NCBI GenBank assembly: GCA_029259775.1
Contig: JAJDEN010000020.1
Coordinates: forward strand, 78,846 to 142,845
Direction of reading: 5' to 3'
DNA: 64,000 nucleotides
DNA from: Planctomycetota bacterium
GTDB lineage: Bacteria > Planctomycetota > PLA2 > JAEUHO01
The notes beneath the pieces were generated by a model that was given only the letters and a program-made list of their open reading frames with translations, ran no database searches and had not been told where the DNA came from. The position numbers were made by a program, and so were the translations under genes. Below, one piece after another: positions 51,380-63,459 of this stretch (positions are counted from its first letter, which is position 1; each line of letters opens with the position of its first letter).

Positions 51380-54300
51380 CTACGAGCAGCCGGAGGTGGC
51401 TCCGCAGGTCTCACACTTCTCACACGTGCCGTTGCGCACCATGGTGAACGAACCGCAGTCGGGGCAGGCGTCGCCGGTGTAGCCCTGCAGACGCGCCTTC
51501 TCGGCCTCGGTCATCGCCACGCTTCCGCGGTAGCTGAACCGCGCTTCGCGCACCTCGGAGCGGGTCTGGACCGTGACGTTCTCGGCCGACGGCGAGGCCG
51601 GCTGCGAGAGCGAGTAGCCGGTGCTCTTGGGACGCAGGGTCTCGCTCGCAAACACGCCTTTCGACGTACCCGCGCCATGCTCGACGCCGTGGCCGTTGCC
51701 GTTGCCATTCCCGCCTCCAGCGCCGCTTCCGCTGGCATGTGCCTCGCCGGACGCGCTCCCGTTGGACCCGCCCCCGTCAGCCCCGCCCGCATCAGACCCG
51801 CCCGCATCAGACACGTCCTGGGTGACCGTGCGCTCCTCGACGAGCTCTTCGCTGTCGTACTCGGGCGTGGCCTCGCCGGCGTCCGCATCGCCACGGACCG
51901 CGTCGGACGTGAGGTCCTCGGGCGTGACCTGCGCGAGATCCTTGCGGTCCAGGTAGGACACAGCCAGCTCGCGGAAGATGTAGTCGATGATCGACGTGGA
52001 CATCTTGATCCGGTCGTTGCCCTTGACGATGCCGTTGGGCTCGAAGCGCGTGAACGTGTAGGCGTCCACGAACTCCTCGAGCGGCACGCCGTACTGCAGG
52101 CCGATCGAGACGGCGATCGCGAAGCAGTTCATCAAGCTCCGGAAGGCAGCGCCCTCCTTGTGCATGTCGATGAAGACCTCTCCGATGTGGCCATCGGTGT
52201 ACTCGCCCGTGCGCAGGTACACCTTGTGCCCGCCGATCATGGCCTTCTGCGTGTACCCGCCGCGACGCTGGGGCATCCGGCGACGCTTGGACAGGTAGCG
52301 GACGACAACGCGCTCGCGGATCTTGTTCGCCGCGGCGCGGACGCGCGTGTCGAGGCGATCGCTGACGAGATCTTCGGGCCCGGTCGCATCGGGGCCGGTG
52401 GCGTTGGGATTGCCACCCTCGGCCTCCTCGAGCAGCTCGGCGAGATCGAGCTCGGTCGTCGTGTTGAGCGGCTGGCTCAGCTTGCTGCCGTCGCGGTAGA
52501 GCGCCATCGCCTTGATCATCTTGCCCCAGGAGAGGCGGTAGGCGTCGGTGACGTCCTCCACGCTCGCCTCGTGCGGCATGTTGATCGTCTTGCTGATCGC
52601 GCCGGAGATGAACGGCTGCGCGGCCGCCATCTGATTGATGTGGCCGACGGCCGAGATCGAGCGCTGGCCGTAGCGGCCGCACTTGTTGGCGCAGTCGAAG
52701 ACGGGGAGATGTTCGTCCTTGAGGCCCGGCGCGCCCTCGATGGTCATCGTGCCGCAGATGGCGTCGTTGGCCTCGTGCACCTGGTCCCGATCGAACCCGA
52801 GGAAGCCCAGCAGGTCGAAGCTCGGATCCTCATAGATGTGCGTCGGCACCTTCAGCTCGTCGCGCAGGAAGTCGTCGCCCACGGTGAAGCGGTTGATGAC
52901 GAACGAGATGTCGAACGCGGACGGCAACTGCGCTTCGATCCGGTCGATGATCTCGGACGTGAAGCCCTTGACCCGCAGCGTCACCTCGTTGATCTGCGGC
53001 GCGCCCCTGAGCGACCCGGTGCCCTTGACGTACCGGACGATCTCCTCGGTCTGCTTCTCGTCGTAGCCGAGGTTGCGCAGCGCGATCGGGACCGAGCGGT
53101 TGATGATCCGGAAGTAGCCGCCTCCGGCGAGCTTCTTGAACTTGACCAACGCGAAGTCCGGCTCGATGCCGGTCGTGTCGCAGTCCATGACCAGACCGAT
53201 CGTGCCCGTGGGCGCGAGGACACTGACCTGGGCGTTGCGGTAGCCGTGGCGCTCGCCCTGCTCGACGGCGCGATCCCAAGCGTCACGCGCCGCGGCGACG
53301 AGGTACGACGGGCAGTGCTCGGGGTCGATGCCCATGGGCGTGACCGTGAGCCCCTCGTACTCGGCGGCCGGCGCGTCGTAGGCCGCGCGACGGTGGTTGC
53401 GCATGACGCGCATCATCGACGAGGCGTTGCGCTTGTGACGCGCGAACGGCCCGAGAGCCTCGGCCAACTCGGCGGAGGTGGCGTAGGCCTCGCCCGTCAG
53501 GATCGCCGTGATGGAGCCGTTCCACGAGCGGCCTTCCGGCGAGTCGTAGGGCACACCGAGCTGCATGAGCAGCGAACCGAGGTTCGCGTAGCCGAGACCG
53601 AGCGTGCGGTAGTCCCACGACAGGCGCGCGATGCGCTTGCTCGGGTACTGCGCCATCAGGACGGAGATCTCGAGCACCGTCGTCCAGATGCGAACGGCGT
53701 GGCGGAAGCCCTCGACGTCGAACGACCCCTCGTCCGCGTTGAAGAACGTCACGAGGTTGAGCGAGGCCAGATTGCAGGCCGTGTCATCGAGGAACATGTA
53801 CTCGGAGCACGGGTTGGACGCGTTGATGCGCCCGTCCTTCGGGCACGTGTGCCACTCGTTGATCGTCGTGTCGAACTGGACACCCGGGTCGGCGCAGGCC
53901 CACGCGCTGTAGGCGATGCGCTCCCAGAGGTCACGAGCCCGCAGGGTGCGCGCGATCTGGCGCTCGCCCTGGGGGCCGGGCGTGCGCAGGTAGAGGTGCC
54001 ACTCGCGGTCGTCTTCGACAGCCTTCATGAAGTCGTTGTCGAGACGAACGGAGTTGTTCGAGTTCTGGCCGGAGACGGTGACGTAGGACTCGCTGTCCCA
54101 GTCGGTGCTGTACGTCGGGATGTCGATGCCGGAGAAGCCCTGCTGCGCGAGGGAGACGCAGCGCATCACGTAGTTCATCGGGACGAGCGCGTCACGGGCC
54201 GCCTTGATGGCGACGCGCAGGCGGCTGTTCTGCTTGGGGTCGAAGCGGGCGTCCTCATCGCTGCAGTCCGCGCGCAGCAGGGGATCGGCGCAGGCGCCAA

Positions 54301-55216
54301 AGACGCCGTTGAGCGACTTCTCGAGCATGCGCGAGCCAGACACCAGCGCGGCGACCTTCTGCTCCTCGCGGGACTTCCAGTCGACGAACTCCTCGATGTC
54401 GGGGTGGTCGACGTCGAGGCAGACCATCTTGGCCGCACGACGGGTCGTGCCGCCCGACTTGATGGCGCCGGCTGCGCGGTCGCCGATCTTGAGGAACGAC
54501 ATGAGGCCGGAGGACTTGCCGCCGCCCGAGAGGGGCTCGCCCTCGCCGCGCAGGGCGCTGAAGTTCGTGCCGGTCCCCGAGCCGTACTTGAAGAGACGCG
54601 CCTCACGGACCCAGAGGTCCATGATGCCGCCTTCGCCCACGAGGTCGTCGCCGACGCTCTGGATGAAGCAGGCGTGCGGCTGGGGCCGCTCGTAGGCCGA
54701 CTTGCTCACGTTCAGCCGGCCCGTCTCGGGATCGACGTAGCTGTGGCCCTGGGCCGGACCGTCGATGCCGTAGGCAAAGTGCAGGCCTGTGTTGAACCAC
54801 TGCGGGCTGTTCGGCGCGCAGCGCTGGTCAGCGAGCATGCGGCACAGCTCGTCGTAGAACGCCGACGCGTCCTCCTCGCCGTCGAAGTAGCCGTAGCGCT
54901 CGCCCCAGTGGGTCCAGCAGCCGGCCAGGCGGTGGAACACCTGCCGGGCATCGGTCTCGCCGCCGCAGACCTGCTCACCGCCCGAGTCCAGGACGGGGTC
55001 GCCCGACGGATCGGTCTGGGGCACGCCGGCGCGGCGGAAATACTTCTGGGCCAGCACGTCGGTGGCGACCGAGGACCAGGTGGCCGGGACGCTCACGTCG
55101 TCGAGGTGAAAGACGACCGTGCCGTCCGGATTGCGGATCTCCGAGGTCCTGGAGCTCCACTCGATCCCCTCGTAGGGGTCCTGCCCGGCGGTCGTGAATC
55201 GACGACTGAACTTCAT
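51380..55216 (-). CDS. nrdJ: Adenosylcobalamin-dependent ribonucleoside-triphosphate/diphosphate reductase, class II, with a low-complexity Gly/Ser/Asn insert and C-terminal zinc ribbon
   Basis: RBS AGAGG at the [20 protein letters not shown] start. Class II RNR blocks throughout. C-terminal CPDCGS...CEKCETCG. Confidence 0.85.
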
Positions 55217-56324
55217 ACGTGCCTCTCTCGCAGCGCGCACACGCGCGCGATCTCTCAAATAGCCGTGTCGAAATGAACGTGTTGTCTGCCTGGGCGTGCC
55301 GCGCCGACTGACATGACGTCAGGCGGCAAGACATCCCTGGAACGTCTCTCCCCAGGAGGATCTCTCCCCAGGAGGAGTCGTGCCCCTGGCGATCTGCATT
55401 GGATCCGCCCAGGCGGCGGCCCAGCGCGCCCCCTCCAGGCTCGCTCGTTGCCGTACCCGTCGCATCCCGTCGCACATCGCCACGGCACTGCTTCGCAGCA
55501 CTGCACTGCTTCGCAGCACTCAGGCGCGCGTCACGGCAACGCCCGACAGCCCGCCGCAGGCAGCGCCTCGGAGCCCGCCGCCGTTGCGGCCGGCCTCCCG
55601 GGACTCCCGCCTCCCGGGACTCCCGCCTCTCGGGACCTCCCGGGGCCTTCCCCGAAGTCGTCCCGAAGGTGCTGCCAAACGTGCCGTCGGGCGATCCCGA
55701 CCAACGCAACCCATCTGGTGCCAACCCCAACAGGTTGTGGTCCCATGGGGGTGACTCCACAGCATGTCGTAGCACGACCGCCGTGAGAGCGCACGAAGAA
55801 GTTCCGTCGCCAAACCGGATGGCAGCCACTCTCGGCCGCGTCACCAGCTCCACGAGCCCGCCTCACGAACCCGCCTCACGAAGGACAGGCGCCCGCGACC
55901 GGGTTCCTGTGCTGTGCGACGCGCTTCCGCAACGGATCCCTCCGCAACGAGACGCATCCCTCCGCGAAGAGACGGATCCCTCCGCGGCGAGACGTAACCG
56001 CTTCACCCCCCAAGACACGCCTGTCCGGGGTCGAAGAAGTTACGCCCGGGGTGGGACAGTCCCGGGCGGGGTAGGGATCCCGTCGCCGGCGTCCGTGCGG
56101 CAGTGAGGAGGCAGCCTGACGTGCCCCCAAAGCGTCCAAATCCACACCGGCCTGCGCCGCTTCTTGCGGCCGTCTGAAGCCAGTCTGGCGCGCTCGCGAC
56201 GAGCCATCGACGTCCAAGCGCCACCAATGGGGCTGCGCGGGATGACAGACGCCGACAACCGGAATCGCGACGCGATTTGGCGCGAACCAACCGTCCGCCT
56301 TCGGGGTTCGTATAGATAGACGAA

Positions 56325-56443
56325 GTCGCGGGGGTCGAGCCGACCACCCTCCTCCCTCCCTACCTGAGACGCCTCCCCGTTTCACCGGCTCCCTCCGCGG
56401 CTGACGGGCCGGGCCCGCAAGGGTCCGGCCCGTTCCTTTTTTT
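56325..56443 (+). ncRNA. Candidate small RNA: TATAGAT -10-like box at 56312-56318, CU-rich body with several CCUCC motifs, ending in an intrinsic terminator
   Basis: GACCACCCTCCTCCCTCCCTACCTGAGACGCCTCCCCGTTTCACCGGCTCCCTCCGCGG followed by the hairpin plus T7 tract. No + strand CDS upstream. Confidence 0.3.
56406..56443 (+). terminator. Rho-independent terminator: GGGCCGGGCCC-GCAA-GGGTCCGGCCC (11 bp, one G.U, GNRA loop) followed by TTCCTTTTTTT
   Basis: Read directly from the sequence. Strongest terminator signature in the window. Confidence 0.65.
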
Positions 56444-56829
56444 GGTCACGGGAATTTGATCCGCACGTGCGCCCGTCCCCGCGGCACGCACCGTGCGTGG
56501 ACGCGCGCTGGCGCACGTCGAAGAACGACGTGCGCGCGCGGGCCTCGAGGCATCGCCAAGCGGTCGAGCCTGCTACGTGAATTCGCGACCGGGCGGCCGG
56601 TTTCAGGTCGGTTATTTGGTTACGGAGGGTGTCGGAGGCGGTGGTACAGTCCGCCGCCAATCGGCCCGTCAGCGGGCTGATTCGACGTTTCTGGCGACTT
56701 CGCTGCGTGCGAAACGCCGAAAACAGACGATCAAAAACCAAGATGTCCGTCGCGCAGGCGTTCACCCCACGATCACGTGGACACACGACCGGCGAAGACG
56801 CGGGCATCCACAAGAGGCAGGAGAGGTTC

Positions 56830-57057
56830 ATGGCTGCGAGGAAGAAGTCGAAGAAGAAGGCCGCGCGTCGGGCCAAGAAGCCGGCGTTGAACGTCGTCGT
56901 CGGTTCCAAGGTCAAGGAAGCCGTCAAGAGCCACGGCGTGCGCTGTTCGGGCGATCTCGTCGAGGCGCTCAACGGCAAGGTCATCGCCATGCTCAGCGAC
57001 GCGGTCGCGCGCTGCGAGGCCAACCGCCGCGGTACGGTCCGCCCCCAGGACCTCTAA
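56830..57057 (+). CDS. Small basic histone-like protein (Lys/Ala-rich N-terminal tail + folded C-terminal domain)
   Basis: RBS GGAGAGG 6 nt upstream. MAARKKSKKKAARRAKKPALNVVVGSKVKEAVK... Confidence 0.55.
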   Translation: MAARKKSKKKAARRAKKPALNVVVGSKVKEAVKSHGVRCSGDLVEALNGKVIAMLSDAVARCEANRRGTVRPQDL

Positions 57058-57238
57058 GCAAGAGTTCAGCTGGCGCGGCGATCCTTCGGGGTCGCCGCGC
57101 ACATCTGCCCAAGAGCAGGTACCCAAGAGGGCGTCGCGCTTCGCGCGGCGCCCTCTTGTCATGTTGACCTCGATCCTTGTTTCGTCCTTCCGTGTCGCCT
57201 CGTGCGACGTTTCTTCCTGCGACCTCCCCCACCGTGAG

Positions 57239-62683: not shown

Positions 62684-62760
62684 CGGACACGGACACGGAC
62701 TGGGACTGGGACTGGGGCTGGGGCTGGGGCTGGGGCTGGGGCTGGGGCTGGGGCCAGGGC
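62684..62760 (+). repeat. Compound hexanucleotide microsatellite (GGACAC)3-(TGGGAC)2-(TGGGGC)7; G4-prone on the + strand
   Basis: Read directly. 40 nt upstream of the coaB start. Confidence 0.85.
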
Positions 62761-62799
62761 AAGAGCCACCCCCTCCCACGCCCAAGCTATCCTTCCCCC

Positions 62800-63459
62800 A
62801 TGCCCGCCAAGCGCCTCCCCCTCGCCGGCCTGCGCCTCGTCGTCACATCGGGACCGACGCGCGAACATCTGGATGACGTGCGCTTCCTCTCCAATGCCTC
62901 GACCGGCCGCATGGGCCACGCGCTCGCGCGCCTGGCCGCACGGCGCGGCGCGCACGTGACCCTCGTGCAGGGCCCCTGCGAGCTGCCGGAGCTGAAGGCC
63001 GTCACGACGATCCCCGTCGTCTCGACGAAGGACCTGCTCACCGCGACACGCGCAGCCGTCGAGCACGCCGACCTCGTGATCTTCGCCGCCGCGCCGTCGG
63101 ACTTCCGTCCGCGCCGCCGGCAGAAGGGCAAGCCCGGCCGCGAAGCCACAGGCGCCATGACGCTCGACCTCGTGGCCACGCCGGACGTCGCCAAGACCCT
63201 CGGACGTGGCAAGGGCGCGCGGATCCACGTGGGCTTCGCCCTCGAGGTGGGTGGCGGGGAAGCACGCGCGCGGCGCAAGATGGCCCGCAAGGGCCTCGAC
63301 GCGATCGTCCTCAACAGCCCGGCCAACTTCGGCGCCGGCGGCGGCCAGGCGACCTGGCTGGGCAAGGACGGCTCCACGCTGGCGCTGGCGAACGCCTCGA
63401 AGGCGGGACTCGCGCGGGCGGTCCTGGACCGCGCTCTCCGCCTGGTCGAAGGCGGGTAG
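62800..63459 (+). CDS. coaB: Phosphopantothenate--cysteine ligase (CoaB domain, stand-alone)
   Basis: LRLVVTSGPTREHLDDVRFLSNASTGRMG; DLVIFAAAPSDFRP. Confidence 0.75.
   Translation: MPAKRLPLAGLRLVVTSGPTREHLDDVRFLSNASTGRMGHALARLAARRGAHVTLVQGPCELPELKAVTTIPVVSTKDLLTATRAAVEHADLVIFAAAPSDFRPRRRQKGKPGREATGAMTLDLVATPDVAKTLGRGKGARIHVGFALEVGGGEARARRKMARKGLDAIVLNSPANFGAGGGQATWLGKDGSTLALANASKAGLARAVLDRALRLVEGG

Follow-up and report, generated by a model that had tools for sequence, protein, structure and literature searches.

A probable small RNA gene with exposed anti-Shine-Dalgarno-like motifs between nrdJ and a DUF1931 histone-fold gene in uncultured Planctomycetota

The cuckoo RNAs, represented by CcsR1-4 of Rhodobacter/Cereibacter sphaeroides and by NfeR1/alpha-r14 of Sinorhizobium meliloti, with ar14 as an Rfam family (PMC8034643), are short trans-acting RNAs whose only conserved sequence is an unpaired anti-Shine-Dalgarno (aSD) motif, CCUCCUCCC, present in several redundant copies, while the stems vary through compensatory changes and the number of motifs is modular and variable (PMC4615179). 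They consist of two to four adjacent hairpins with CCUCCUCCC in each hairpin loop (PMC4615179), and the aSD seeds of NfeR1 have been shown experimentally to occlude ribosome-binding sites (RBSs) (PMC10746234). CcsR is under the control of alternative sigma factors that respond to stress, and it adjoins a gene for a small nucleic-acid-binding protein (PMC8034643). The cuckoo RNAs are the closest functional analogue of the element described here, a CU-rich small RNA (sRNA) gene at 56320-56443 on the + strand of a 64-kb stretch of a Planctomycetota contig (JAJDEN010000020.1), which as a whole is referred to as the window. An initial annotation had proposed at this position an sRNA that ends at an intrinsic terminator and carries several CCUCC motifs able to pair with RBSs, and our data make it highly probable that a structured sRNA gene is indeed present.

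Like the cuckoo RNAs, the window RNA has CCUCCUCCC, in one copy located outside any hairpin loop, together with multiple aSD-like motifs predicted to be unpaired, variable stems and a modular motif copy number, and like CcsR it has a small nucleic-acid-binding neighbour and probably a stress-sigma control, the latter suggested here by the promoter. In contrast to the adjacent hairpins of the cuckoo RNAs, a single closing helix (P1) surrounds a long multi-motif unpaired stretch of 19-92 nt, sometimes with one extra hairpin. The motif is also looser (CCUCC, CUCCC or CUGCC), the host belongs to the Planctomycetota and not to the Alphaproteobacteria, the neighbours are nrdJ, in some lineages dcd, and a DUF1931 gene instead of DUF1127 (CIN1), and no match to the ar14 covariance model was obtained in the window or in six homologous loci. 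Since the architecture, the model, the phylum and the DUF1127 linkage of the cuckoo RNAs are all absent, membership fails, and the window RNA looks like an analogue of these RNAs by convergence rather than a member.

The 6C RNA and RsaE/RoxS are more distant analogues. The 6C RNA of Actinobacteria (RF01066; B11 in mycobacteria) has two hairpins with loops of at least six C, is conserved in sequence across Actinobacteria, and its C-rich unpaired loops pair with G-rich target sites; its hosts are high in GC and it has a strong GC 3' hairpin, often without a clean U tract. The window RNA shares the high-GC bacterial host, the C-rich unpaired region and the strong GC 3' hairpin, but architecture and phylum differ, its loops are mixed C/U with CCUCC periodicity, and it gives no match to RF01066. 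RsaE/RoxS (RF01820) and the UCCC-motif Rsa RNAs of Firmicutes hit the Shine-Dalgarno (SD) regions of many mRNAs with several accessible C-rich motifs; they come from low-GC hosts and share neither sequence nor fold with the RNA described here, and our locus gives no match to RF01820. As a stand-alone gene with an upstream signal of the extracytoplasmic function (ECF) sigma type, a class read here from AAC-N17-CGTA, the candidate also resembles MicA, RybB and MicL of the E. coli sigma-E regulon, for which an ECF-type promoter is the sole upstream signal and which form the repressor arm of the stress regulon; these sRNAs differ from it in being Hfq-dependent and in using 5'-end seeds against omp/lpp mRNAs. 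Scans of the whole window with Rfam at gathering thresholds and for tRNA and tmRNA gave no match, a permissive Rfam scan of the spacer region (4227 families, E ≤ 10) returned sub-threshold, terminator-driven noise only (mir-3158, anti-hemB, DnaX), and nothing was found at E ≤ 1 in six homologous loci. A literature search found no description of an anti-SD sRNA in Planctomycetota, and the candidate is a previously uncatalogued sRNA family within the known class of C/U-rich anti-SD sRNAs.

The candidate sits in a 1.57-kb gene-free spacer, with nrdJ on one side and the gene of a 75-aa protein on the other, and the TATAGAT box, the CU-rich runs, the hairpin and the U7 tract listed in the initial annotation are all found in the sequence. 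The predicted transcript is about 124 nt long (56320-56443, + strand), with its 3' end at the U7 tract. Folding of 56319-56443 (125 nt) gave -67.3 kcal/mol compared with -47.9 ± 3.8 kcal/mol for dinucleotide shuffles (z = -5.1, reached by 0 of 200). In the predicted fold the 5' arm of P1 (56324-56342; 11 bp, a 2-nt bulge and 6 bp) pairs with a 3' arm at 56386-56402, which contains the CUCCCUCCGC run and has an unpaired probability of 0.00-0.01. P1 encloses the single-stranded CU-rich segment ACCACCCUCCUCCCUCCCUACC (56343-56364; unpaired probability 0.97-0.99), which holds overlapping CCUCC/CUCCC motifs, CCUCCUCCC among them, and a 7-bp hairpin P2 (56365-56384) with the loop CCUCCC (56372-56377). 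Directly 3' of P1 lies the terminator P3 (56403-56443), supported by both a terminator scan and covariation. Its hairpin GGGCCGGGCCC-GCAA-GGGTCCGGCCC has the 11 bp previously noted, one of them a G·U, and can be lengthened to 14 bp (56403-56434). CC and T7 (56437-56443) come next, so that a GC-rich hairpin and a subsequent U tract, as in an intrinsic terminator, are present in the window. The three CU-rich runs, CCCTCCTCCCTCCCTACCT (56347-56365), GCCTCCCC (56371-56378) and CTCCCTCCGC (56389-56398), are likewise there, but the last is paired as the 3' arm of P1 (unpaired probability 0.01) and only two CU-rich regions are therefore exposed. The same spacer has, at 55932-55999 (+), three tandem 20-nt repeats of ACGGATCCCTCCGCnnnGAG, whose core CGGATCCCTCCGCGGC is 94% identical to the P1 3' arm (56386-56401); the repeats could be a partial duplication and were not seen, on reading by eye, in the spacers of L001-L003.

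Homologous loci were collected via NrdJ and via relatives of the 75-aa protein, and all derive from uncultured metagenome-assembled genomes (MAGs) or metagenomes. They yielded, with the window, eight distinct members (window, L003, L001, L202/203, L204, L207, L208/209 and L221/222), all located at the same position between nrdJ and the DUF1931 gene, with the order nrdJ-(dcd)-RNA-DUF1931 gene strict in 8/8 loci. When the spacer was compared by BLASTN, the candidate was its best-conserved piece in L003 and L001. The homologues share the long closing helix P1, the 3' hairpin P3 and the CU-rich interior. A P2-type hairpin with a C-rich loop and unrelated stem sequences occurs in four members (window, L003, L001, L202), is missing in L207, L209 and L221 and is replaced in L204 by a larger, differently folded insertion; P2 is thus optional, given its absence from three homologues. 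A covariance model built from six sequences with P1 and P3 scored 36-114 bits on the eight members and covered the window RNA over the full model (113.7 bits, E 4e-20). With filters off, the model gave one match in the 64-kb window (113.6 bits), the next full-length match being at 13.7 bits, and it found no match in 77 distant nrdJ loci (1 Mb in total). The other CCTCCTCCC sites of the window fall inside long ORFs. The RNA family is real but patchy, is single-copy within the window, and appears confined to a small clade of uncultured Planctomycetota. A pattern search of JGI metagenomes with GAGCC-N40-70-GGCTC-N11-20-GGCCCGCAAGGG was also tried; among the matches listed, those inspected were chance or coding sequences lacking a CU-rich interior.

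Conservation and covariation in related genomes, which had been proposed as a check, bear out a + strand sRNA gene ending at the terminator. In the model-based alignment of the eight members, canonical pairing was found in 96.7% of 240 pair cells over 31 pairs (96% of the cells in P1), and 14 of the 31 pairs show double-sided changes, 8 of 17 in P1 and 6 of 14 in P3. None of 500 shuffles equalled the observed pairing and covariation, a statistic that overstates the significance because the eight sequences are related and that is to be taken as indicative rather than formal, and sliding the partners by 1-3 columns reduced pairing to 38-57%. A MAFFT alignment of six sequences, not fitted to the model, gave the same pairing picture, and RNAalifold predicted P1 and P3 de novo from it; L003 and L001 adopt the same architecture on folding, with z of -5.6 and -4.7. 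The 23 G·U cells give the strand, since pairing is 96.7% when the alignment is read as the + strand compared with 88.8% as the opposite strand, and the U/pyrimidine tail comes after P3 on the + strand. A minus-strand reading is ruled out by the G·U pairs and by the covariance model scores.

Just upstream of the RNA, a (C)CAAC-N16/17-CGTA block is found in 8/8 homologues, with CGTA invariant and a spacer sequence that diverges, strongly in L202, L204 and L209. The window has this CCAAC-N16/17-CGTA arrangement once in its whole length, with a -35-like CCAAC (AAC core) at 56287-56291 and a -10-like CGTATAGA at 56309-56316 (consensus CGTA-K-R-G-A), both on the + strand. Promoters of ECF sigma factors are recognised by a -35 AAC and a -10 CGT (PMC3426412), and as a sequence match the block, with AAC and CGT about 16-17 nt apart, looks like an ECF-sigma-like promoter. 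The TATAGAT box proposed as -10 element overlaps CGTATAGA and is present, at 56311-56317 and thus one base away from the reported 56312-56318. Its role as -10 box is not supported, as the homologues have TAGGGAT, TAGGAAG, TAGGGCT or TAGGGAA at this position, and the conserved CCAAC-N16/17-CGTA fits ECF-sigma promoters better. A scan for sigma-70 promoters found no site in 55000-57200. Since TATAGAT is not conserved, the sigma-70 scan is empty and the CGTA block is conserved, we infer a 5' end near 56320, about 7-9 nt after CGTA. An ECF-sigma-like promoter would imply that the RNA is probably stress-induced.

The lengths of the P1-enclosed interiors differ between homologues by numbers that are not multiples of 3, and neither the + strand ahead of the terminator, where the absence of a coding sequence had been noted, nor the stretch overlapping the RNA has an open reading frame (ORF) with a Pfam match; for these reasons the RNA is non-coding. 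C+U makes up 70-89% of the interiors, against a genomic G+C content of about 70%, with G mostly confined to the P2 stems, and each homologue has 2-7 CCUCC/CUCCC motifs with an unpaired probability of about 1. The sequence thus varies while composition and accessibility are kept, which is the pattern expected of a seed-presenting sRNA and not of a protein-coding or purely structural element. The exposed CCUCC motifs would pair base for base with the SD core, and GGCAGGAGAGG is kept 5-8 nt before the ATG of the DUF1931 gene, which indicates that the organism uses SD-type RBSs. Taken together, these two observations make trans pairing with translation-initiation regions the best-supported mechanism, and by analogy with the cuckoo RNAs we lean, by a small degree, towards an RNA that acts by SD-type base pairing. 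Transcription would start a few bases after AAC-N17-CGTA and stop at the P3 hairpin and U tract, P1 clamps both ends of the G-depleted CU-rich interior so that several CCUCC/CUCCC motifs are presented unpaired, one of them in the P2 loop, and these aSD-like seeds, several of them redundant within one molecule as in NfeR1 and CcsR, would pair in trans with G-rich translation-initiation regions of the GGAGG type and block ribosome binding.

Beyond the relatedness of the aligned sequences, several observations weigh against this reading of the locus. The covariance model found no match in the close relatives L201, L002/L205 and L217, nor in the L210-L220 clade, so that the RNA is either dispensable in these genomes or has moved elsewhere. 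Most homologues are without a clean U tract 3' of P3 and have pyrimidine-rich tails of mixed U and C, which leaves the efficiency of termination in them uncertain. The ECF class of the promoter is assigned from a short consensus. When the 64-kb window was scanned for duplexes formed by the CU-rich segment, generic G-rich matches only and no outstanding target came up, the best non-self duplex (-31 kcal/mol) falling in a G-rich stretch near 62750-62800 (-), and there was no enrichment of GGCAGGAG or GGGAGGAGGG in the window. The duplex with the RBS of the neighbouring DUF1931 gene, discussed below, is not significant in the window (p 0.11) or in L003, L204 and L207.

The conserved structure could alternatively be a cis element, either the 3' untranslated region (UTR) and terminator of an upstream gene, ancestrally dcd, or an attenuating leader of the DUF1931 gene. 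In L207, L209 and L221 it follows dcd in the same orientation at a distance of about 100-130 nt, and it precedes the DUF1931 gene, again in the same orientation, by 390 nt; mixed origins are also known, as the CcsR RNAs are 3'-UTR-derived (PMC8034643). In these three loci, however, the conserved promoter block comes after the dcd stop codon and before P1, and the RNA is intact in five lineages that have neither dcd nor a remnant of it (window, L001, L003, L202, L204). Moreover, the DUF1931 gene is preceded by a conserved promoter-like block of its own, some 175 nt past the terminator, with a T tract, TTACGG and TGGTACAGT (about 56617-56651), the last being an extended -10 of sigma70-like type, and this block is found in 11 loci, including loci without the sRNA; no conserved alternative (antiterminator) pairing was found either. 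Because the RNA persists irrespective of dcd and the DUF1931 gene is served by a separate promoter, we regard the RNA as a separate transcription unit and a cis element as improbable. That the RNA is functionless low-complexity sequence beside an orphan terminator is more improbable still. High-GC intergenic regions are rich in repeats, and CCCTCC occurs across the window about as often as expected (57 times against 56), being clustered only locally; but chance is effectively refuted by the conservation, the covariation, the promoter block, the G depletion and the z-scores.

As for what the exposed motifs do, the main rival to base pairing with mRNAs is a protein-titrating sponge, in which the unpaired C/U-rich motifs would be sites for an RNA-binding protein (e.g. 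of KH, CSD or S1 type) that is sequestered or delivered. A repeated accessible motif with variable copy number is a hallmark of sponge RNAs of the CsrB/RsmZ type, and the many redundant accessible copies of one short motif, two to seven per molecule, as well as the lack of a convincing mRNA target in the window scans, are in line with it; cuckoo RNAs, too, are bound by a small protein, CcaF1 (PMC8034643). On the other hand no candidate binding protein was identified, the motif exactly complements the SD core, and tested sRNAs with the same motif act by base pairing (PMC10746234). A sponge is judged unlikely, although conserved, G-depleted motifs that are predicted to be unpaired would suit both functions, which are not mutually exclusive. 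We are similarly doubtful of a dedicated regulator of the neighbourhood, as opposed to a global one, in which CUCCUGCC pairs with the GGCAGGAG RBS of the DUF1931 gene, or the RNA acts on nrdJ or dcd with a G-rich leader. The strict synteny fits such a role, as do several GGGAGG repeats in the nrdJ leader, and 6/8 of the sRNA interiors contain CUCCUGCC, which can pair with the conserved RBS GGCAGGAG, or a sequence close to it, with a duplex that beats shuffles in L209, L202, L001 and L221 (p 0.003-0.02). The window copy, however, is without CUGCC, half of the members show no significant duplex, as given above, and the same RBS is kept in L201 and L205, which are loci without the sRNA; short matches between RNA and RBS are moreover expected because both partners are compositionally biased.

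Returning to SD-type base pairing as the preferred mechanism, it is tempting to speculate that the sRNA is the post-transcriptional arm of an ECF-sigma stress response and acts locally on the nrdJ-(dcd)-sRNA-histone module, with CUCCUGCC/CCUCC seeds on the GGCAGGAGAGG RBS of the DUF1931 gene and possibly on the GGGAGG repeats of the nrdJ leader. We give this combined proposal a low probability. If it were true, stress would be coupled to the chromatin protein and to the supply of deoxynucleoside triphosphates (dNTPs), and no RNA before it would have been shown to regulate a bacterial histone; to our knowledge it would also be the first characterised sRNA in Planctomycetota. Irrespective of this, the locus, in which promoter, structure, seeds and terminator are all well defined, could together with its eight homologues serve as a starting point for studies of RNA regulation in the phylum, and its fixed place between the genes for a class II ribonucleotide reductase and for a bacterial histone-fold protein provides a concrete target hypothesis. 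An independent, convergent case of many redundant CCUCC seeds, if this is what the family represents, would support mimicry of the 16S anti-SD sequence as a general route to broad translational repressors. The importance is limited by the small uncultured clade, and nothing in the proposed mechanism is unprecedented.

The gene on the downstream side of the RNA (56830-57057, + strand) encodes the Lys-rich 75-aa protein, which has no Pfam match at E ≤ 0.01 but matches a solved DUF1931 histone-fold protein, 9qt0, at E 2.6e-12. More than 100 relatives were found, labelled 'histone H3/H4' by JGI, and those with a named source are from Planctomycetota. The product belongs to the histone-like proteins of bacteria and has a basic N-terminal tail. 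The promoter block of this gene is followed by CCGCCGCC and a covarying hairpin, GGCCCG-UCAG-CGGGCU, and the whole of 56617-56700 (+) is likely the promoter of the DUF1931 gene plus a 5' stem-loop.

On the other side, nrdJ (ORF 51380-55258, minus strand) encodes a class II ribonucleotide reductase. The window NrdJ shares 84% identity with that of L003 and 74% with those of L001 and L002; the three are on MAG contigs labelled Planctomycetota. The mechanically called ORF begins at a TTG at 55258, while homology is found only from about residue 15 and an ATG at 55216-55214 is preceded by GAGAGAGG, so that the true start is likely this ATG. The NrdJ homologue of L217 (1-2304; 1642 aa) contains an intein and LAGLIDADG domains, whereas the window copy has neither. 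About 510-570 nt upstream of the nrdJ ATG, at 55725-55785, there is a pair of imperfect palindromes, CCACAACCTGTTGGGG and CTACGACATGCTGTGG, spaced by about 32 bp, which would be functional on the minus strand and are kept in L001-L003. They look like tandem NrdR boxes at an nrdJ promoter, and such boxes would imply an nrdJ 5' leader of roughly 500 nt. This leader, on the minus strand, has several GGGAGG motifs and short tandem repeats (55340-55400, 55481-55516 and 55590-55650), namely TCCTCCTGGGGAGAGA twice, an 18-nt unit CAC(G/T)GCACTGCTTCGCAG twice (in + strand reading) and GGGAGGCGGGAGTCCC twice; no cobalamin riboswitch or other Rfam element was detected in it.

A dCTP deaminase gene (dcd) is located between nrdJ and the histone-like gene in L207 (1683-2255), L209 (1939-2511), L221 (1627-2211) and L210 (2309-2866), and is cleanly missing in the window, L001-L003, L201, L202, L204 and L217. 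Its presence in only some lineages indicates gene gain or loss at a conserved locus of dNTP metabolism. That the long gene-free spacer derives from a dcd pseudogene was ruled out, since tblastn with four DCD proteins was empty in all of these loci that lack the gene. A further element of the spacer is found in the window at 56020-56075 (+), where an inverted pair GACA-N5-TGTC is followed by an invariant TACGCC and then by another GGGACAG. The inverted pair reads GGGACAG-N3-CTGTCCC in L003 and L204, and the element is common to L003, L204, L202, L201 and L207, lying upstream of dcd in L207; it may act as an operator or represent a small hairpin RNA.

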